Shown here piece by piece: positions 3,201-46,523 of a DNA stretch of 64,000 nt. A program made the position numbers and the translations under genes. How positions within the stretch are numbered: position 1 is the stretch's first letter; the number at the start of each line of letters is the position of its first letter. The notes beneath the pieces were generated by a model. It had not been told where the DNA came from. It saw only the letters and a list, made by a program, of their open reading frames with translations, and ran no database searches. Source of the DNA: Trichoplax sp. H2 (taxonomy: Eukaryota); assembly GCA_003344405.1 (NCBI GenBank), contig NOWV01000131.1:1-64000 (forward strand), given 5' to 3'.

Positions 3201-4854
3201 ATCGCTGGCGCTTATGCTCTTGCATGCACTGGTCATTACATGATAGATTTCGGTAAAAGAGCTACTGAACGGATAAAACTGGAAGATCTAAGTGTCCTAG
3301 CCGAGGTTAGACAAATTTCTGATTTCATAGGATATATACAAATGTTAAATAATACCTACATGAATGAACAAAAGTAATAACGATTTTGTTTTTATACTAG
3401 TTCCATGGAATTAGTTCTGGTTTAAAAGCCTTTTGTACAGAGATGAGTGTATCTGGTATTGAGGTATAGTAAAAGAACAAACGCTATACGTATAACTTCG
3501 AGTAGCCCAATTCTAATTCTTTTTAATGATTGAGACGCGCTTGCGGCGGGCATGGTTATTCATCGGCCTGCGGTATAGGTCATATTTATAATAATTGGTT
3601 AGCGTCTTGCACATACGAAGGCGAAAACACTGTTATGTACCTTCAGTCAGCTAAGTAAGTTTGTAAATTAAATAGACTAAGAAAGACATTTATAAAAGTA
3701 AGAGAATACATTAAATTAACAATTTTTTAGATATTTACTTCGTTGTGTCAAGAATCCAAAGTCTGCACCTTTAGGTGTATCAGCAGTCTTACATAATCCA
3801 CCAGGTAAACACTGGGATGTTAAGAATATGCAAGATCTAGAGAAGACGAATACAGTACTAGAAGCTTATAGAGCTAGAGCATATAAGTAAGTAATCGACA
3901 CAAATACCATAACTAGCTCTATCATATCATTAACTCTGCAATCTTTGACAGAAAAGTAGCTATTGCTGATAAATACCTTCGCGAATTACAATCTGGTGGC
4001 GATACTAGTTACGATGCTTGGAATAAATCCGGAATTAAATTAGTGGATTGCGCAAAGGTACTTATAACTGTTTAAAATATTTTAGTTAATCTCGGCTTTG
4101 AGTTTTTTCTTCACTATTTTTAAATACTAAGTCTATACTATTTTCTGCTCGTTCTACAGGCATTTACTCACTATTTCGTAATAAAGACATTCTTTAATAT
4201 GATTGAGAAATCGCGCTTGGGACAATCTTGTCATCTACAGTTACATAGACTATCTATTCTGCTAGCTTTACATGGCATAGATCAAAATACTGGCGATTTT
4301 ATGCTCGTAAGTATTCTGAATAAATTTACTATTAACACAAACATAATATACATAATTATCGTTGGCGATAAAGATCGTATCATTGTACTTTATTAATCGT
4401 CGCAAGTTAAAACTAAGCGAGCACTAATTGAAATTATAACATGTATTTTATCAGGACAACTTCATCGATTTTGAACAAATCAAACTCATTCGAGTAAAAA
4501 TATTAGAACTATTTAGTGAAATTCGACCGGTCGCAGTTTGTTTAGTTGACGCATTCGATATACCGGATCAGACGCTACTATCTGTTCTCGGTAGATATGA
4601 TGGCGACGTTTATAACAAACTATTCGAATGGGCAAAAGAGGCGCCTTTGAATAAAACTCAAGTTCGTTATCTATTAGTAGTAGTCATAGATTGTGTGTTC
4701 GTTTATTTAGCTTAGGAAAAAACATGGAAGAAAAATGCTCATCGCTATTAATTAAACAGTTATTATAATTGATTTGATTTAATTGTTATTTATATTGTAG
4801 GTACATTCATCATATGATAAATACCTTCGGAACCTGCTTACAAGCAAGTTATAA
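256..4854 (+). CDS. ACOX1: Peroxisomal acyl-CoA oxidase (ACOX1-like), multi-exon
   Basis: Spliced exons read [16 protein letters not shown].. (256-382), [11 protein letters not shown].., [93 protein letters not shown] (catalytic Glu motif) and [11 protein letters not shown]. The last exon (4801-4854) reads [17 protein letters not shown], a canonical PTS1. One acceptor near 3530 looks defective (see findings). Confidence 0.93.
548..720. repeat. Tandem repeat, ~67-bp unit, about 2.6 copies, in ACOX intron 1
   Basis: GATAGCAAGCTT(G/T)CTTGATAAGCTCA.AAGAGAACAA recurs at ~548, ~616 and ~682. Confidence 0.85.
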
Positions 4855-6095
4855 AGAGTTTATGTCGCTGAATTATCTTCGGATAATATTTAAGATAGAT
4901 CTCAAGTTATCTGTTATCTTTGGTCACTCAGCTAAAGGCTTGATCTTAATGATCATACTCGTATGGATTACATCGTACAACAAAATATCATATCTCGATG
5001 TAACTCGATATCTTAGATACAAATAGCACATTTACGTTTAAGTACTAGCGATACTGTTAGCCTTTTGCATTAACCTAATTGTGGTATTTCTATACAATTT
5101 GATGAGTTAATAGTTATAATCTATTGATTGAGCATGAAAGTATTTACGCTCTCGTTTACGTTTTTATACTGTCATTATCCACTTATAATAACAATCTTAA
5201 TAAAGAGAATAATTCAAGTATAGTTTTTCTTATACTTGTATTGAATGATTGCACCCGTTGCATCTATTGCATCTGTTGTATATGGACCGTTAATATCAAT
5301 AATACAATAGTACTTTAAATATGTCTTTCTTAAATTTTTTACTTATTAAGTCGTTCTTATAAGTCATAAGTGAAATTTAATCTAACAATGATAAATGCAT
5401 GTATCTGTTTATACCAATATAAATATATTCCATATCTTTCAGTGAACTCTGTATACGTGTTTTATTGGTATGAATAGTAAATGTAGTAGAATTACTATGA
5501 CTTACTATCGGGAGAATTGAAAGCGTTTGTATAACTTTACCTCATGAATATGGTAGAATACGTATATATATAATTTGATATCGTTCAGGATTAAGCGGTT
5601 AAATACTGTTAGCAACTATATAATCTAATAGTTAAAAATTACGATAGCATGTATTACAATCCTTCTGTTTTGTATTAAATGAAATATCGTGTAAGGTCGT
5701 TGTGGTTAAACATACTCATATCTAATAAATAATTTTAATATTAAGTTTACTATTTTCACGACTTGGAAGTACTAATTATAATTAATGTAATACTAACTCT
5801 ATGGAGGAAGCTCTATTCGTGCATTGTAAATGAGCTTCTTTACAATTAGATTTTTGCAGAACATACTGCAGTAATTGCTTGATAAATATAGAAATATATA
5901 CTCTATAGGATCAAAAACTGGCTATCAGTTTATTCATTCGATATAAAACAGGAACATGCTTGCAACTACTGATCACCAACGCATACCTTAGATTGGTTAG
6001 TCTCGTTATAGAAATATCCCCTGCCTACGTGTAAAAAATATAATCATCTATAGTTTGACTCCATTTATTACAATCATGAGAATCCAAATAGAGTC

Positions 6096-6244
6096 AAAAA
6101 AGCCATCGGTGACGGCGCAGTGCGTTTATCCGGTTCCAGTTGATTAGAAGTACCGAAGAGTACGTATCAACGGATTCGGGAAGTCACTATTTGCCAGAGT
6201 AAATAATTCACATGAACGAAGTAACGCAATAGCTAAGCACCGAC
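6096..6244 (-). ncRNA. Candidate RNA polymerase III (type-3 promoter) structured ncRNA, ~150 nt, vault/Y/sbRNA-like architecture
   Basis: Minus strand reads GUCGGUGCUUAGCUAUUGCGUUACUUCG...GGAUAAACGCACUGCGCCGUCACCGAUGGCUUUUUU. Terminal stem GUCGGUG/CACCGAU, second stem UGCGUU/AACGCA, inner hairpin AUCCG-UUGAU-GUAC/GUAC-AUCAA-CGGAU. T6 terminator at 6101-6096; upstream TATA and PSE-like elements at canonical distances. Confidence 0.7.
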
Positions 6245-6265
6245 AAAAGTACAAAGGGTCGATTG

Positions 6266-6323
6266 TATTTATATATTTTCTTATAACGTTAATTGCTTTA
6301 GTTATGGGATTCGCATGACGTCA
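6266..6323 (-). promoter_or_regulatory. Type-3 Pol III promoter: TATA box, PSE-like element and CRE/ATF site
   Basis: Minus strand: TATATAAATA at 6275-6266 (-31 from the G at 6244), ATCCCATAACTAAAGCA starting at 6310 (-66, similar to the vertebrate U6 PSE core ..CCGTAACTTGAAAG), and palindromic TGACGTCA at 6316-6323. Confidence 0.65.
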
Positions 6324-7542
6324 CAGCCGACAGTTTAATGCCGGACAGTAATTTTTACTTCTGTAGGAGCTGTACACTGTACAGTACTGTACAGTTCGGT
6401 AGCTCGCCATTCGTATTGAAGTACTCAAAATTTCGTTCAGCAAATCTCGACTGTAGGTTAAAGATTCATTTGGCAATCGTCGATACTATCTAACTGTTCT
6501 GTACTTGAGTAGCCCCACATGCCGTGGAAGTAAAAGTATAGATCGATAGCGTGTAGCACTGTCCAAGGACTATCGTATAAAAGTATTGGTGACTGCGCCT
6601 AGCGTTCAAACTAATCCAAAGATCAGAAATTGTTTCCCATAAGCAATTTTTGTTTGTTTTTGATACGAAGTAACGCTTTGGCAATGAGCACTAACGATGG
6701 GGAGCGAAGTTTGTTGTTATTATATATTGAGTTTGAATATATAATTTACTTCAGTTATTATACGATATGAGGTGAATGGAATACAGCATAACCTCCATTT
6801 GAGGTTGCCATGGAAATAAGAGAGTAAACGCCTGAGACTTTATCCTGTACTGTATACTGTATGTATTAGTTGGTACTGGATGGAGATCAAGAATGTAAGT
6901 GAAGTAATATTGCAACGCACAGGACGTCTAGTGAAATGAAGGATCGTAACTTATCATACATGTATTAGAAAGGAAATGAAGATTGCCATAAAATAAAGTA
7001 ATAAAATCAGTGTCTTTTTGAGCTACATCCAGTATAAGAAAAAGCGACATTTCAACATCTTTACTTTTCTCGTCACTCTACAGTAGTATGTACACTAGCA
7101 CATTGTTCTGTACAGTATTAGTGTACATACTACTGTAAAGTAGCGCTTGTCAATAGGCTGCTTAAACCAGAGTCCAATTTTCACTATTTACTATAGGCCT
7201 AGTTTTCAAAAGGTTGAGTTTGCCCAGGCAACTTTTCTGACCATAAGGCATGTCAACACTTGCCCGGCCCAGATGTGGGAGGTCCAACAATGACGTGATG
7301 ACTAACCTAGTAGAATTTCCAAGCCAACCGCCAGCATAGCACACAGTATAGGCTTTTACCAGTGTTTTGCTACACAGAATACATATCATGGGATAGACCA
7401 GTGTAGGCTTAGTTTACAGGTATTAGTACTCTGCTTGCACAGCTCAGTAGCATCGATTGCACATTCTTGCTACAAAGGTTGCTGTCCACATCTTGGTTCT
7501 TGATCGGTTTATTTGTCATATTGGCTCTAAAAGGATTGAAAA

Positions 7543-10500
7543 ATGGCATATTCAAAGGTAATAGCACGATTTTAAGCATAATAAATCAATTGTTGATACT
7601 GTAGTTTACAGTTGTAATTGCAATACACACGATGGCTTAGAGGATTGACGAGATCGAGAAGGAGTGATTGCGACCAGCGGATCTGGTCTCAATTTTGCTC
7701 GAAATTGCTAATAATGTTAGCAAGATATTACTGTAATTAAGTTTAAAAAGGCTTATCAGTAGGGATTCTAATAATAATTTCATCTTGCATCTTTGTGCAG
7801 TTTTGGATAGTTGTTCTCTGTATAATGGAATGTTGTTTTTCTACACTTATCAATCATCATCAGGAAGCTATTGCTATCTGCCTGGATGTAAGCCCTTCTA
7901 TGTGCTATGCACCTCAAGGCCATGCTAGCAAATTGGAAACTTCTGTCAATGCGATTAATATGATCGTATCTCGAAAGGTATACATTTAAAAATGGTATTG
8001 GTAGAATGCAATAGAAACTAAATCAACTCTTATTACTCTATTTTTAGATGTTCTCTCAAGGTCATTTAGCTAATAAGGATGAATTTGCTTTAGTCTTATT
8101 TGGAACCCAAGGTAAGCAATACAGCAATGTAATTCCGACCAGTCTCTTCCCACATAATGGATGCCAGTGACATACTCTATTTTCTATCTTACTCTTGATG
8201 AATAAGATACAAAGTACTGTACTCATGCACTGTCTTACCTATATGCTTAGATTGAGATAATACTAATTGGTAGCTAATGGAGTTCTTGCAGATTGCATGT
8301 ATGGTGATTTTATCGATAGAGCTAATCGACGAGATTACTATTACTGTATAAAACTTTGGAAAGCACAGCTTGTATTGCAATAGAGTATTAGATACAAATT
8401 AAAATTCTACAATACTGTACTGATTATACTACAGTCGCCTTGAAAGAAAATGAAAACTAATCTACATCTATTTTTGCATTCATATTGTGTTCCACTTAAT
8501 TACGATTTTCTGTCGCAGCTAGAAAGAGAATTGACAATTATATTGCCTGTTCTACTAAAAATGCCCTTAGTGTAATCGACATTTTCGTGCATTGCTTAGA
8601 GAGTGATAACGATCTATATGAAGATGGTCAATATGAAAATATTAGTGTGGTTAGACCACTTGGACCACCTGATTTAAATTTTCTACGATACATTCAAACC
8701 AACATAGCACCAGGTAAGAATAGAAGCCATTCTATTTCAATATTTATCAAATCACGAAGTTACTAGTAATGGTACAAAATTTATTATTACGGTAATATTC
8801 AAACTAGATATACATGTTTTATTAAATTTATAGGAGATGAAGACGCAGATTGTATCCCACAAACGCATGACATATTTGCAACAGTTAGCATCTGTAAAAT
8901 TTAGATTAAAAATGAATGTAACAGTATTAGGCATACTAAGAAAAAATATGGACACGATTGACTAATAAACACGAGGATATTTGATAATGTCCATTGCAGT
9001 CATTACGTTGTTGGTGGTCCTGCTGTACTTGTGCAATTTTTCTTAACCTTATTCGCTTATTTATAGTCCTGGATTCCATAATAGTTGCTATGGATTTACT
9101 TAAAAAGTCAACCAGGTACAATAGCACTTTACTTTATCGTAAATGATAAGTACATAGGTAATGATGCTGATGAGCTACAATCTCCGAATTGAAATAGGAG
9201 TTGACTATCTGTCTCTTTCAATATTGTAATTTACTATATTCCATCATTACATATTTTCTTGTCTATGCTACATGTTATATGACGATATATTAAAATGAGT
9301 AAGTTACTTTTTTTTAATACAGTGGGAAGAAGTTTGGAGACAAGCGAATAATCCTCTTTTCTGACCTCGGTTCCCCATTTGCTGATGACCAAGTAGAAGC
9401 AATTACCGAGGGTTTGAAGACTTTAGGCATACAGTTGACCGTAATGTGAGAGATATGTATAAATTTATTAAAGTCGTATCATGAAAAATGGACTTTAATA
9501 TCAAAATATAAAATTATTTTCTCTAAATTACTGTATTTGCTATATTGTATTCAGAGGCCCTGATATTGACGACGACAACGAAAATGAAGATGATGACGGT
9601 GATGATAATGATGATAGCCAGAATTATACTAATAACGACGGTGCACAGAGTTCTAAATCTCAAAAGAAACATCTTACCTTTCATGGGAAAGAAAAAACTC
9701 CTCAGCAGGTAACTTAGAATTAATGGTAATAACATAAATTACCAATGATATAAGTATTACAATGGACTATGTGCGCTTTATAACATTGCAGCATAAACTT
9801 ATCTTAAAATAATCAATATAATGGTTTTAGATTGCCGGCGAATCAACACTGAAAAAGATATTAGAAATAGTTGATGGAGATTCTCATTCATTAAGGTCAG
9901 TTTATATGGTAGATAACTATCAATTAAAAACTGCTCGTAGCTATTGGCTGTCCTATCAATTATGCGAGCTGTTGGCTAACCTTTGTTTCCGATATATATT
10001 ATATAGGAGTGCGTTGTCGACCCTTAGCTTTTTTCAAAAGCGGTCAATAAAAATGACCACTGTTTTCCGAGGGCCTCTAGAAATTGGATCGAAACTTAAA
10101 ATTAATACCTACGCTTATATAAAGGTATTATCACATCTAACACCTGAATACAGTACTCTGATTTACGATCATCATATCATTAAAGTAATATGAACTGTAT
10201 TAGTCATTTTCTGTTTTTCTGTAATAATGAAAAGGTACGAGAATCTAAACCAGAATCGTGGAAGAAACTATCAGCAATATCCGAGGCGTCAAATCAACCC
10301 GGTGATATGAAGGTAAAAATTGAAAGATCATATCACTTAAATGATGAAGATGAGACGGAAATTGAAAGAGAAAATTTAGCTAAAGGTTAGTTATATTGTA
10401 GTAAATGTTAAGATTAAACAAGGTAAGGCATTTTCAAAGTAATAACTCTGAATGTTCTTGTTAACAATTAATTTGTTATATAACACTATAGGCTATAAAT

Positions 10501-13355
10501 ATGGTAAAACCATTGTTCCATGGCTCAAAATTGACGAAGAAAGTATGAAGCTAAAGGCTGCTAAATGCTTATCAGTACTTGGATTTACAAAATCTGAAAA
10601 TGTGTGTGTGACTATGTACCCATACACTTGAATTCCTTGTCATTGTTAATCTTTTCATCTACAGTTGAAAGTGTTGAACAATTTTTTGTATTCCGCAGGT
10701 AAAAAGACATTGGTTAATGGGAGATGGTGTAGTAGTTTTTATGCCTGCACCAAACGATGAAGTATGTTCATCATTTTTCATATCTGGTCGTATGGTTTGT
10801 GTTAAAATGTGTCATTCATGCCTAAATTTTTAGCCTGCTGGTGTTGCATTTTCGGCCTTGGTTCAAGCTCTATATGAAACTGATAAAGTGGCTGTTGTGC
10901 GCTACGTCTATCGTAATAATTCTCAGCCGAAACTTGGAATTTTATTTCCCCAAATAAAGGCAACTTATCGGGTAATCAGAAAAGCTAAATTGAGATATAT
11001 TCTATTTCCATACAGCAACTGCAACTCGCTGACTTCTTTATACAGTTACAGAATTGTAGATTAAAGTCTTGTAATTATAACAGAGCCTCTTGTTTATCCA
11101 ACTGCCTTTCATGGAAGATATTCGCCAATACACATTTGCTTCGTTAACCACAAATAAGAAAAATGTACCTACAGGTATGTTTATTTCTATGCACAAATAT
11201 ATAAATTTACGATCTATCTCTCATTTACGTGATGTTCTCTATGCGGAAGATGACTTCTCGTCTACTTTTTACTAGATGATCAGTTGGACCTTGTTGATGA
11301 TTTAGTAACTTCCATGGATTTATCTCGAGCCTATCGGTACAGTATAGACTACGTTGCATTGCTATTATTTGTAATAGATCTATAGGATAGCGATCGTTGC
11401 ACTGAAATCAATTGACTAAAATCGATTTCGCATTAGTGATGACGATGGAGAACTTATCGAAGCCCTTAAGCCTAAGTTGACTTTCAATCCGGTTCTTCAA
11501 CGTTCTTATCAGGTATGTACATATAAAATAATACAATTTTTAAAGCATTTATTCTTGAAAATAAAGTTATTTTGCACTAAACTATGACCGTACTATTTAA
11601 AGTAGCATCCTTAAATTTTATGCCTATTTGTTTATTATCTGAAAGTGTATACAACACCGCGCCCTCAATCCTGATGATGCGCTTCCTCGACCTGATCCAG
11701 TTATAACGAGGTACTAATTAAGATTATTTCAACCACAATATAAAATTTCGTCTTAAAACATCGGGGTTTCTTTATCTTAATTGTTGCTTCTTAATATACA
11801 ATTTGACAGGTATTTATCTCCTAGTCAAGATGTAACGGCAACATGCGCTTCTCATTTTCAGAAAATAAAAGTTCGTATCATTTCGTTATTCTTTCATCCT
11901 TTCTCTGGAATTCTGTAGTACTAAATCACTCCATATATTTAGGATTCCTTTGGTATAGTTCACGTACAGAAGAAAAAAAAACGCGACGATGGAACAGCGG
12001 CTAGTATATTTAAAGATAAGTAAGTTGCCAGATGCAAGATGCATATGTTTAAGATCGTGCTGTCAGATAACATACTTGCTGTATTAAATAAATTACATGA
12101 CGTTTAATTTAGTTAGTATTTGTCAATTTCAGTATTGACCTCGCATTGGAACTCGATACGTCTTCTAAACGTGCTAAGGATTCCAATAGTACTGCAGATG
12201 TTGACTTTAGTATTTCAAGTTTATCAAAAGAAAATGTGACGGAAGTAAGTTTATCATCCTTATAAGAATGCAAACTAAAAGCTGATATACTAACCTCAAT
12301 ACTACTTTCGTATTTTAAGGTCGGTACCGTTCAACCAGTGCAAGATTTTAAGGCCATGATAAATCAGAAAGATGAAGATCGATTCGAAGAAGGTACAGAT
12401 TATCGACGGGTATTAATTTTGATATTTAGGGTCTTTAAATGCTATATTAAGAATTGGTACCCAATGAACACTTTAGCCTGCAAACAAATGAAAAGTCGCA
12501 TCTGGCAGCTTGTGATGGATTCAATTGGTTCGCAGTTGTTCCCTAAAGCTATGGATTGTTTAAAAGCTTTAAGAGAAGAATGTGTTAGGGTAAGTAATAA
12601 ATTCTAATATTGCCTTGCATACTGTATGTTTTTATATAATTAATAATTATTGGATTCTGTTACTGCTATTTAGCTTGGCGAGCCTGCTGTATTTAACCAG
12701 TTTTTACAAGATATGAAAGATAAACTTTCTAACGCATTTGGAAGAGATTTCTGGTTGCTTGTCGTTGAAGGTTGTGACCGGCTGTATTTACTATAGTTAT
12801 TACAGAACTTACATGTCGTAAAGAGATGACTATGAATTGGCTATTGCTTACATTAAAACATACGATAACGTTTCGCTATACAATGATTTTTAAATTATAG
12901 GAGAAATTACGTTGATTAGCGTTCAGGAGTCTTCCGAAAGTGACGTAACTGTTGCTGATGCAAAATCGGTATTTTCACATATTTACTTGTACTATACTGT
13001 AACTTATTCACCATAGTTCTAAATTTAATCATATTCCATCTTTATGCCTTGGAGTTACTATTTACAGAAGTTATTGGAGTGATTAATTTGTTTATGGTTG
13101 TGAGTTGTAATCACATTTACCGATTGGCTTTCAATTTTAAAATAGTTCCTTAAAAGCACTGACACTAAGGTTGAAGATAACACTAAGGAGACTACTGAAG
13201 AGGATGCTGATGATTTGGTAGGTGAAATTTCGATACCATAATGCCTAAGTGTTCTCTTTAAGGCCAATAGTTAATTAATCTACAACATAATTGTCGCCTA
13301 CATTCGTGAATTTTTCTAAAATGTATCTTTGTTTCATTAGTTGGAAATGATGTAA
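7543..13355 (+). CDS. XRCC5: Ku80 (XRCC5), non-homologous end-joining DNA end-binding subunit, multi-exon
   Basis: [18 protein letters not shown] (vWA start), [128 protein letters not shown], and C-terminal EEDADDLLEMM* (resembles the DNA-PKcs-binding tail). Confidence 0.95.
8852..9066 (+). other. Probable U12-type (minor spliceosome) GT-AG intron in Ku80
   Basis: 5' splice site GTATCCCA (U12 consensus GTATCCTT) and branch-site TTTTCTTAAC ending at 9047, ~20 nt before the AG at 9065-9066. Splicing restores the frame ..DEDADF|LDSII... Confidence 0.7.
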
Positions 13356-15461: not shown

Positions 15462-17952
15462 TTATACCTTCGATGAATTTAAATCGATTGTCATGTTGCA
15501 ATAACATACAGTCTTATCGCCTTTCGTCAACAAGAAGTGAAGCTTTTGTGGATCTTCATGATTTTGGAATGTAGTTACTTCAAGTTGTTGGTTTTCTCGA
15601 CAATGATTTACGTAACAAATGTCAAATTCTCTAACACAATTTGGGTTGAAATCATAGGTAAACCCGGTATGATAAGCTGGTGAACGCTTATAAATTGCAT
15701 TTGCCGCTGTATCAAAGCAGAAAGTTATATAGCGAGTGTTCGTAATTATATGGTGGTGATCTAAATCGTCATAGCGTGAATAAAAGGTGTGTTTATATGC
15801 ATCTTTAGGTATTTTTGATGGCACATTAACCTATTTGTAAAGCGATAAGATGAAATGAAAAGATAATAATTAGTATAGTATACCTAATTTTAACAACTTC
15901 GTTCACCCGCATTTATTATTCATATAAAAAACGACGAGCATCTTATGTCTACTTAATTCTTCTAACTGAGAACACTACTTGCAAGTATCATAATACTGTT
16001 AATTATAAATATTAACTATTTATTAAAAGACTGATAACATCCTAACCTCATGTGGTTCGAGTTTGTTGCGATACTCTGAAAATGTTTTCTGATGCCAATC
16101 AGTAAACGGAACACCTTTACCATCTTTCATACTAAAGTTAACGATGTTACTTGCAACGGATATTAATACTTTATCGTCTAGTTGGAGATCTGTATTGACA
16201 ATAAAGGATGACTTGCCTAAACTGAGTAGCTTCAAATCATGCTTAAGATCTTGAAATTGGCCGATTTTGAATAATTCGGGGTCGATTTTTACCCGATGAG
16301 TAAAGATAACTTGTATAGCATTTTCAAGAAGATGACCTTTCAAGTAGCCTTGAGCAAGATAACAGTTTAATCGTGAATTGGAAATTGCCTCCTTTACATA
16401 CTGAAGAATTACATTGTTAAAGCGATCGCGATGGAAGCCCACTGAGGGAATGTCAGTATAGACACGAATATCTGATTCTGTGTGCATCGGTAATTGCCAC
16501 TGTGGCAATTCACCAGCAATTTCGCGATCTAAGTCTAGATATCCTTTGCACACAATCTCTTCTCCACATTTACCAATACATAGAATACGATTAAGTTCTG
16601 CATTCTCATAAACAGAAATATCAACGGTATCGCCTACAGAAACATTTCCGGTAACATCTAGGTGTAACTCTTTAATTTGAGCTAAAGAACTCATTCGTGT
16701 AGCTACCTGAAATTTTTTTGACAACATAGCGCTGCGAATGCCGTGTTGGCAGTAACTTAACATCTGAGCCCAATTTACGTTTCGATTTTCATCCAAGTCG
16801 CTAGGTCGTACCTCCACGGATGATATCATGCATGGTTCGGATGGCAAGCCTAATTTTTCTAGATTTATCAAGTTATGTTTAAGGTCATCACGAATTTGAG
16901 AGCTACGCAATTCCTCTGTAACATCATCCGATATTGCGTGCAGTTTATGATCTTGAGTAACTTCAGTCATAGTTTCAACTTTACATAGCAAGCTTTTATC
17001 ATCGCCAAGAGTCATTTCACATAAGGTCTTGAAGGCATTCTTGTTAAAATTTGTCAGCTTAACCATTGCGCTACCAAGTAAACCATAGTGAAAATTATAA
17101 AAATTGGGATCAATCGTCATTTTCACTGATTTTAAGAGAGGTTTGGTACCATCTTTAAATAGTCCAAAAGTCTCATTCATAAAACGAGAACTTAGGGCAC
17201 CAGCAAGATGGCCAGTATTGGGTACATTGGCCTTACGATTTTGATCAAAGAAAAAGTTGACGCCAGACAATGAGCCGGGATACTCAGCGGAGGTGGCTGC
17301 AGACCGAAGACCGTAAGCACTCCATATCGATGGCGTGAGCCTGTTGATTTTGCCTGCAAATTGAGCATCATTCTATGTGTTATTGAGGGTGAGCATCGAA
17401 AAGCTTGTTGGGATATTTCTAGTATTATTGTTAATAAATGGTATAGTACGTGAAGTAAAACGAGCCTGAATATACTGTACTAGTAATTAATTGATTAATC
17501 GATTGATTTGAACTTTAAGTGATATTCTTATTGGTCATCATTACATTATTCAATTGTAAGAAATAAACTATGATGCGTATCATTCTTTTAATTATTATGG
17601 TAAAATAACTAACCGTAAGTAGAAGAAACATACTAATATAATGATCTTGTAATAAGAAAATAAAGATAGCGTAATATCGATGACCAACTACTGTACTGTT
17701 TACCGTACGTTAGATGTGGCCTACGTGCAATGAAATTTCGCATAATTTGATACAATACATAGTGTTAACACTGTAAATAGTATTGGTATACTACGGAATA
17801 GCATAAGATAATATAACAGAAGTAAAAGGTAAATATTACTGCTAACAGATGAAGATCATAAAAGGATTTGTTTGATGGTCGAAAATAATCTAACCTCCAG
17901 AAAGGCGATAAGAGAATGGAAGGACGACGGTAGACGCTCGCAACACTTGCAT
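15462..17952 (-). CDS. Tandem hotdog-fold acyl-CoA/acyl-ACP thioesterase-like protein (~577 aa), predicted mitochondrial presequence
   Basis: Exons 17952-17895, 17353-16047 and 15830-15462 join in frame with GT-AG sites. Motifs VRPSDLDENRNVNWAQMLSY and SRYDDLDHHHIITNTRYITF resemble the R-x-x-D-x-D-x-x-x-H-V-N-N motif of 4HBT/acyl-ACP thioesterases; LGKSSF..IVNFSMKDGKGVPF is also hotdog-like. Exon 1 assignment is less certain. Confidence 0.7.
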
Positions 17953-24884: not shown

Positions 24885-26569
<1,685 letters not shown>

Positions 26570-42161: not shown

Positions 42162-42540
42162 CTTCTGAAAATGTCGAACGTTGAGGAGCTCTTTACTGCA
42201 GGACTTGCTCAATGCTCAGCTGCTCACTCTCAATTGTAGTCATTAAGGAAGCTACAGTACAGTATGTACTGTACAGTACTGTACTGTACTGTACCGTATC
42301 ATGGACCACTCGAGTCAGATTATTTCCGATGGCACTCCTTCGTTCAAAAATCAAAGTTGTATTGCGTAGCTGTAGAATATTTATATATATATATGTATAT
42401 ACCCGTAGAAGGATATCTCCACATATAGAATGTATCTAGTTCGGGCCTGATTGAACTTACTCAATTATATCGTTTCAGGCTGCCATCGAAATTAATCAGA
42501 CTGTCGATGTAAATTAACTACAGTAGTCTGGTGACCGATT

Positions 42541-44828: not shown

Positions 44829-46523
<1,695 letters not shown>

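Follow-up and report, generated by a model that had tools for sequence, protein, structure and literature searches.

The interval between the acyl-CoA oxidase and Ku80 genes of Trichoplax sp. [quoted passage not shown] The pair lies in the window, by which we mean the whole stretch of 64,000 nucleotides that was analysed (contig NOWV01000131.1 of assembly GCA_003344405.1, positions 1 to 64,000), and we recognized it from promoter elements, RNA ends and family resemblance in the DNA sequence. What is new is a candidate pair of placozoan vault RNAs, in a phylum where such RNAs had been sought and not found; it is not a new kind of RNA. Using Pfam, we located an acyl-CoA oxidase exon at 4443-4715 (+) and Ku domains at 8503-8766 and 12269-12607 (+); coding sequence resembling Ku80 begins with an exon near 7840-7989. 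The small RNA locus falls within the intergenic stretch of ~3 kb between the two genes, on the opposite strand to both. Farther along the window, a 385-aa ORF at 16026-17180 (-) has 93% identity to a Trichoplax sp. H2 protein.

The vault particle is one of the largest ribonucleoprotein complexes. The vtRNAs are described as Pol III transcripts of 80-150 nt with a panhandle fold, whose conservation does not go beyond box A, the TTACTTCG that flanks it and a poorly retained box B; for invertebrate vtRNAs, too, box B is described as poorly retained (PMC8824774). Their genes combine internal type-2 elements with an upstream TATA box and proximal sequence element (PSE) and with a proximal CRE-like element that is conserved across species (PMC7058938). 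Vault RNA has been validated experimentally in mammals, frog, fishes, sea urchin and Trypanosoma brucei (PMC7058938, PMC8824774) and predicted in Lottia, Helobdella, Fasciola and the cnidarian Hydractinia (PMC7058938, PMC8824774, PMC11067881), in Hydractinia from an Rfam scan (PMC11067881). For Trichoplax, the noncoding RNA survey of Hertel et al. (2009; PMC2655684) gives MVP as present and vault RNA as expected and not found by homology, with Y RNA and 7SK also missing. The same survey locates the Trichoplax snRNA, RNase P, MRP, SRP RNA and tRNA-Sec genes elsewhere, and it describes a clearly recognizable PSE in the snRNA genes that is common to Pol II and Pol III genes (PMC2655684). Within the excerpts of the Trichoplax and placozoan vault literature that we searched, no placozoan vault RNA is reported; Stadler et al. 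2009 (Evolution of vault RNAs) and Mosig et al. 2009 lay outside that scope and may bear on the point. Going by the 2009 survey (PMC2655684), Placozoa fit the description in the original prediction, which had spoken of a lineage where such RNAs are poorly documented.

One of the two genes, copy 1, had been predicted as an unannotated Pol III small RNA gene. When we read the minus strand, the CRE, the PSE-like element, the TATA box, the start at G6244, the 149-nt unit and the T6 run all stood where they had been placed (Table 1), and a motif search of the unit found no internal TTTT. With a PSE-like element ~60 nt and a TATA box ~30 nt upstream, a purine start and an oligo-T stop (T6 in copy 1, T4 in the second copy described below), the layout resembles that of the type-3 Pol III genes, namely U6, U6atac, 7SK, RNase P/MRP RNA, Y RNA and tRNA-Sec. 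The distances of the PSE and TATA box are like the usual vertebrate type-3 positions. Unlike the type-3 genes, the units lack the hallmarks of the corresponding RNA bodies (ACAGAGA; a cloverleaf; in copy 1, GAUC) and have no Rfam match to them. The absences claimed for copy 1 were borne out, in that a motif search of the unit found no ACAGAGA, GAAAGUCCCC or GAUC, and ARAGORN found 0 tRNA genes in the window. The second copy contains one GAUC.

A diverged copy (copy 2) lies 451 nt upstream of copy 1 on the same strand. We found it through the recurrence of TTACTTCG at 6673-6666. Its predicted start, G6695, is 31 nt past the first T of its TATA box. The 5' end of the unit reads GTTAGTGCT...GCGTTACTTCGT and AACGCTAGGCGCAGTCACCAAT at the 3' end leads into TTTT at 6582-6579; a motif search detected no internal TTTT. 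A covariance model built from both copies, R1, did not reveal a third copy in the window. Apart from the two copies, its top match there (13.4 bits, E 0.26) had neither a promoter nor a vault motif on reading and was rejected. Copy 2, and the 3' block that the copies have in common with the Rfam Vault consensus, were absent from the original prediction.

Table 1. Features of the candidate vtRNA gene pair, in positions of the window
Feature	Position	Strand	Remarks
Copy 1, transcription unit (predicted)	6096..6244	-	149 nt, +1 G6244 to T6
Copy 1, T6 Pol III terminator	6096..6101	-	read from sequence
Copy 1, 3' block GCGCCGTCACC	6108..6118	-	GCGC.GUC common to copy 2 and Rfam Vault consensus
Copy 1, box-A-like TAGCT + GTTACTTCG	6217..6235	-	+10..+28; vault 5' hallmark
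Copy 1, TATA box TATATAAA	6268..6275	-	from -31; 8/9 positions kept in copy 2
Copy 1, PSE-like element ATCCCATAACTAAAGCA	6294..6310	-	from -66
Copy 1, PSE core kept in copy 2, ATAACTAAAG	6305-6296	-	
Copy 1, perfect palindromic CRE TGACGTCA	6316..6323	.	-79..-72
Copy 2, transcription unit (predicted)	6579..6695	-	~117 nt, +1 G6695 to T4 at 6582-6579
Copy 2, 3' block GCGCAGTCACC	6588..6598	-	aligned with copy 1 and Vault consensus
Copy 2, GCGTTACTTCG block	6666..6676	-	motif search
Copy 2, TATA box TATATAA	6720..6726	-	from -31
Copy 2, PSE core ATAACTGAAG	6749..6758	-	composite PSE-TATA pattern
Copy 2, degenerate CRE-like TCACCTCA	6768..6775	-	-80..-73; 2 mismatches
Block with both genes	5986..6854	.	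869 bp; missing from some DNA of one sample

We compared the frequencies of the motifs in the window with expected counts or shuffled sequence. The composite pattern ATAACTRAAG-N18-24-TATATAA matched twice in the window, at copy 1 and copy 2 only, and in 0/100 shuffles. The recurrence of the PSE core and TATA spacing at copy 2 supports the type-3 promoter geometry first proposed for copy 1. By our hand count, the gap from TATATAA to GTGCT is a fixed 28 nt in both copies. TAGCTNNNNNGTTACTTCG, with up to one mismatch, had a single match in the 64,000 bases, at +10..+28 of copy 1 (expected 0.01; 1/100 shuffles matched). This segment is the one that had been likened to the box-A segment of vault RNA, a likeness that gains from its uniqueness in the window and from the description of TTACTTCG as a vault trait (PMC8824774). 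Matches to GCGTTACTTCG with up to one mismatch were confined to the two copies (expected 0.51; two or more such matches in 9 of 100 shuffles). The window contains TGACGTCA a single time, a count that by itself is unremarkable (expected 0.64; at least one in 48 of 100 shuffles). The 13-nt PSE core of the original prediction, allowing three mismatches, is not enriched in the window (21 matches versus 23.35 expected), and the octamer ATTTGCAT, considered as a distal element, has six matches in the window, none near the locus.

Two wider scans gave candidates that we rejected. A metagenome scan with TATATAA-N22-34-GTGCT-N6-12-GCGTTACTTCG returned two loci that are GC-rich, bacterial-looking and without a T run, and we attribute them to chance. 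A contig scan with the canonical 19-nt vault box-A segment returned one locus, in a Bacteroidota MAG, which reads as protein-coding and has no Rfam match at E<=1; this, too, we ascribe to chance.

Alignment of the two copies revealed an uneven pattern of conservation. Identity was 8/9 in the TATA box, 8/11 over RNA positions +1..+11, 15/20 over RNA positions 12-31 and 18/28 in the 3' part of the RNA, against a background of 26% +/- 9% measured on random 24-mers of the region. By the same measure, the spacer between TATA box and start (8/23), the 40 nt after the terminator (5/40) and the 58 nt upstream of the CRE (19/58) are at background, and the central domains of the two RNAs differ by large indels. 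Since flanks and spacers have fallen to background identity, the duplication must be old enough to have randomized unconstrained sequence, and retention of the promoter boxes and RNA ends therefore requires selection on both copies after the duplication. From this comparison we conclude that the two copies are apparently old paralogs with selectively conserved promoter boxes and RNA ends.

We next consider the fold, for which paired ends, a second helix and a long inner hairpin had been proposed. In copy 1, GUCGGUG (1-7) can pair with CACCGAU (134-140) and UGCGUU (17-22) with AACGCA (119-124), and the predicted fold, with a minimum free energy (MFE) of -40.8 kcal/mol (z -2.68; 1/200 shuffles folded as well), contains the long inner hairpin at 66-115. 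The proposed pairing is thus possible and the hairpin is found, but the MFE fold of copy 1 omits the end-to-end stem; a fold constrained to form the stem is 4.5 kcal/mol weaker, and the pair probabilities are ~0.01. For copy 2 the minimum-energy fold is the panhandle itself, and the fold as a whole is no better than that of shuffles (z -0.11; 91/200 folded as well).

When the 16 pairs of the panhandle were scored over both copies, 31 of the 32 cells formed standard pairs, compared with 18.8-53.1% in slid controls. Two pairs changed in a compensatory way from copy 1 to copy 2 (C3-G138 to U-A and U17-A124 to A-U), and one was broken in copy 2 (G4-C137 to A.C). The covariation count was reached by 121/500 shuffles and, with two sequences, carries no statistical weight. 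Of the 7 pairs in the helix that competes with the end-to-end stem in the copy 1 minimum-energy fold, 3 are lost in copy 2, according to the alignment as read by hand. It is therefore the comparison with copy 2, not the energy of copy 1 alone, that supports the end-to-end stem. A scan for bacterial promoters and terminators re-found only the 3' hairpin of copy 1 with its T6 run, and this hairpin is not kept in copy 2 (hand-read alignment).

An indication of family came from copy 2. Among 4227 Rfam families, Vault (RF00006) matched 6695..6581 over model positions 1-99 of 99 with 17.5 bits (E 0.11), about half the gathering score of 34 bits and hence below threshold. Position 1 of the model falls on G6695, the +1 predicted by TATA spacing. 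Vault was the better of only two Rfam matches for copy 2, the other being a 7.9-bit U4 fragment on the opposite strand. In copy 1, we obtained 0 Rfam matches at E<=10, whether the whole unit or its 5' part alone was used, and the window as a whole gave 0 matches at Rfam gathering thresholds. When 6000-6400 was compared with Rfam at E<=10, four weak matches were returned, none of which falls on the copy 1 RNA; the highest-scoring, snR64 on the opposite strand (18.3 bits, E 0.64), we regard as chance.

The Vault consensus has GGUUACuUCg at its 5' side and gGCGCUgUCC ahead of the 3' strand of the terminal stem, and TTACTTCG is present in it too. In both copies, GUUACUUCG and GCGC.GUC follow the order of these consensus blocks and occupy the corresponding structural positions. 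As copy 2 was found through TTACTTCG, its Vault score is not independent of the GUUACUUCG motif, and much of the score must come from that block. Beyond the TTACTTCG motif, there is additional evidence in the 3' block, the stems and the way the ends coincide.

The vault 5' block, box A followed by TTACTTCG, is represented by GCGTTACTTCG in both copies and by TAGCT-N5-GTTACTTCG in copy 1. Of box A, just the initial TAGC survives, in copy 1 alone, and the second half of the box is not kept. A motif search for canonical box B found no GGTTCGA, GTTCGA or TTCGA in either copy; the Vault model aligns GUUUGAA of copy 2 to box B. Because canonical box B is absent and the second half of box A is degenerate, the promoter looks almost purely external (type 3). 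It is possible, if rather doubtful, that the missing placozoan vault RNAs are to be found on such a promoter, an almost purely external one of U6 type (CRE, PSE and TATA) with box B lost.

In sum, the units (149 and ~117 nt) fall in the 80-150-nt length range of the Vault family and share with it the 5' block of box-A start and GUUACUUCG, the GCGC.GUC 3' block, a panhandle with a variable centre, a T-run terminator, upstream TATA, PSE and CRE elements and an arrangement as tandem diverged paralogs, in a host that encodes MVP (PMC2655684). They differ from the family in a score below gathering for copy 2 and no match for copy 1, in the lack of a canonical box B, in a box A whose second half is degenerate, and in the long extra hairpin of the 149-nt copy 1.

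The original prediction had named a vault-like, a Y-like or a new Pol III RNA as candidates. Like Y RNAs and nematode stem-bulge RNAs, the units would encode small Pol III RNAs with paired ends, internal loops and a 3' U tail, but they differ in that neither the Y_RNA nor the sbRNA model of Rfam matched either copy at E<=10. The 7SK model gave no match at that cutoff in either copy, and the U6atac model matched neither. Of the models singled out for comparison at the outset, then, Vault matched, in copy 2 and below threshold, whereas copy 1 matched none of them; the vault-like option is strengthened by a full-length match, and the Y-like option gains nothing. We also rejected telomerase RNA, U7, snoRNA, 7SK and U6atac, since their motifs are absent or their genes are located elsewhere in the genome according to the survey (PMC2655684).

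The units might still be real type-3 Pol III genes that specify a different or placozoan-specific small RNA, either Y-like or of a new class, in which case the likeness to vault RNA would come down to short motifs and the product would have no association with vaults. A sub-threshold Vault match in one copy and none in the other, together with the absence of canonical box B, is what this explanation would lead one to expect. A terminal stem, internal loops, a variable centre and a U tail are, moreover, common to Y RNAs and other type-3 products, and the Y and 7SK RNAs of Trichoplax are likewise reported as missing in the 2009 survey (PMC2655684). We nonetheless consider it unlikely. Vault was the best of the only two matches of copy 2 among 4227 families and covered the full length of the model, no Y_RNA, sbRNA or 7SK match at E<=10 was obtained for either copy, copy 1 contains no GAUC, and GUUACUUCG and GCGC.GUC are ordered and placed as in the Vault consensus.

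Sequence variation offered a further view of the vault RNA gene pair. We compared four sequencing runs as contigs; X1, X4 and X10 span the whole 2.6 kb and behave as DNA, and the very small run X3 contains one 443-nt contig over 6030-6464 and no discrete transcript. Within 6030-6464, the four runs differ at ten sites (an insertion behind 6046, and positions 6054, 6251, 6252, 6256, 6266, 6267, 6335, 6338 and 6382). The copy 1 RNA and positions 6268-6334 contain none of the ten; five are in the 17-nt stretch between TATA box and start. Assuming independent and evenly spread sites, the chance that all would miss both the copy 1 RNA and the 56 nt from TATA box through CRE (6268-6323) is ~0.002. 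Nor do the three runs that extend over 6383-6949, a region reaching beyond the genes, show any variation there. As the sites are linked and 6383-6949 is invariant as well, the pattern is only suggestive of constraint on the copy 1 RNA and its promoter.

In run X1, one contig (depth 33.8) links 5985 and 6855 through seven other letters, and another (depth 37.8) contains 5956-6904; the flanks have a depth of ~58-64. DNA that lacks the 869-bp block with both genes thus exists in the sample, and the locus is therefore dispensable on at least some chromosome copies. Its contig of 949 nt has single-copy depth, which indicates that the locus is not a dispersed repeat. At 5986 and 6854, we found neither terminal inverted repeats nor target duplications of the kind expected at transposon ends.

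A form of the locus without both units would be unsurprising if one or both were silent relics (pseudogenes), or if AT-rich motifs had come together by chance, and no stable RNA were made. In copy 2, the decayed CRE, a terminator of only T4 and a fold no better than shuffles point the same way. Relics or chance arrangements would not be expected to keep promoter boxes and RNA ends while flanks and spacers sink to background identity, and they sit poorly with two compensatory stem changes and with composite motifs so far from chance. We therefore judge this explanation very unlikely.

The conserved blocks could instead be cis-regulatory DNA of Ku80 or the acyl-CoA oxidase gene (ACOX), made up of the CRE, TATA-like and other factor sites, with no small RNA genes at all. 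This would account for a palindromic CRE ~1.5 kb upstream of the first Ku80 coding exon and for an X3 contig that covers 6030-6464 in place of a discrete RNA. It leaves unexplained why the ends pair and change in a compensatory way, why a T run follows exactly after the 3' stem strand in both copies, and why the gap between TATATAA and GTGCT is fixed and the Vault match full length. We regard it as extremely improbable.

Under the favored interpretation of two vtRNA genes, Pol III would read each gene from an external promoter of U6 type, with the PSE core ATAACTRAAG ~60 nt upstream and a TATA box at -31. A CRE stands in front of the copy 1 promoter and a decayed one at copy 2, and what may be a remnant of box A lies inside the RNA. 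From what is known of type-3 promoters, SNAPc on the PSE and TBP-Brf2 on the TATA box would recruit Pol III, and CREB/ATF bound to the CRE may modulate copy 1. Transcription would start at G6244 and G6695, each 31 nt past the first T of its TATA box, and stop in the T runs. The 5' and 3' ends of each transcript would pair into a panhandle, with GUUACUUCG and GCGC.GUC near the stem and a central domain free to vary. By analogy with animal vtRNAs, La would bind the U tail; the panhandle RNA might then be bound by TEP1 at the MVP vault caps, with a free pool in the cytoplasm.

A credible candidate pair fills a gap from the 2009 survey of Trichoplax (PMC2655684) and extends the Vault family to a fourth data point of non-bilaterian grade, after the cnidarian prediction (PMC11067881). 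The pair also suggests an ancient origin for the unusual mixed promoter with its CRE: if the assignment is true, the CRE-PSE-TATA module of mammalian vtRNA genes would be at least as old as the common ancestor of placozoans and bilaterians. Paralogs with such different centres (149 and 117 nt) may also differ in role, for example as a particle-bound RNA and a free regulator. The pair is a concrete target for study in an animal with very few cell types, where a natural form of the locus without both genes would provide a ready-made loss-of-function test in a very simple animal.

In X1, a DNA run and one of four sequencing runs that we compared with the window as contigs, one contig joined position 5985 to position 6855, with 7 other letters in between. 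This contig had a depth of 33.8 and occurred alongside a full-length contig with a depth of 37.8, while the depth of the flanks was ~58-64. These contigs point to an 869-bp presence/absence variant (5986-6854) that carries both small RNA genes, namely copy 1, the candidate vault RNA gene, and copy 2, its diverged candidate paralog. A search of the ends of this block for inverted or direct repeats found none.

Variation among the four runs was also examined around copy 1. Half of the variable sites between 6030 and 6464 (5 of 10) lie within 6251-6267, the 17-nt spacer that separates the TATA box from the predicted start of copy 1. From a very small run (~5 million letters of contigs), we recovered one 443-nt contig that covers 6030-6464 and spans both copy 1 and its promoter. 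Compared to the window, this contig differs at 7 bases and carries an 8-nt insertion, and none of these changes falls in the copy 1 RNA or the promoter boxes.

On the plus strand, 6068-6176 gave a weak match to snR64, a box C/D snoRNA family, that runs antisense to copy 1 across its 3′ half. The match scored 18.3 bits (gathering score, 38) with an E value of 0.64, and we took it to be due to chance.

Other features of the window are listed in the table. Since word depth at 6305-6391 exceeded that of the flanks several-fold, and this is where many joints between contigs begin or finish, the ACTGTACAGT-type motif is dispersed in the genome.

Repeats and open reading frames (ORFs) in the window
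Feature	Position	Strand	Length
Short palindromic ACTGTACAGT-type repeat	6376-6395
Short palindromic ACTGTACAGT-type repeat	6847-6861
Short palindromic ACTGTACAGT-type repeat	42255-42295
Long single-exon ORF	16023-17372	-	385 aa counted from first ATG
Elongation-factor-like ORF	25622-26569	+	315 aa
Elongation-factor-like ORF	45576-46523	+	315 aa

The long single-exon ORF shares 93% identity with a hypothetical protein (600 aa) from Trichoplax sp. H2. Two unnamed proteins show ~58-59% identity to this ORF, and one of them contains PF13279 (thioesterase-like). The atlas also linked the ORF to thioesterase-like clusters, which were most frequent in molluscs. Judging by inspection of their sequences, the remaining two ORFs look like translation elongation factor 1-alpha over its C-terminal two thirds. 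Encoded on the same strand with ~20 kb between them, they seem to form a tandem pair of diverged genes.
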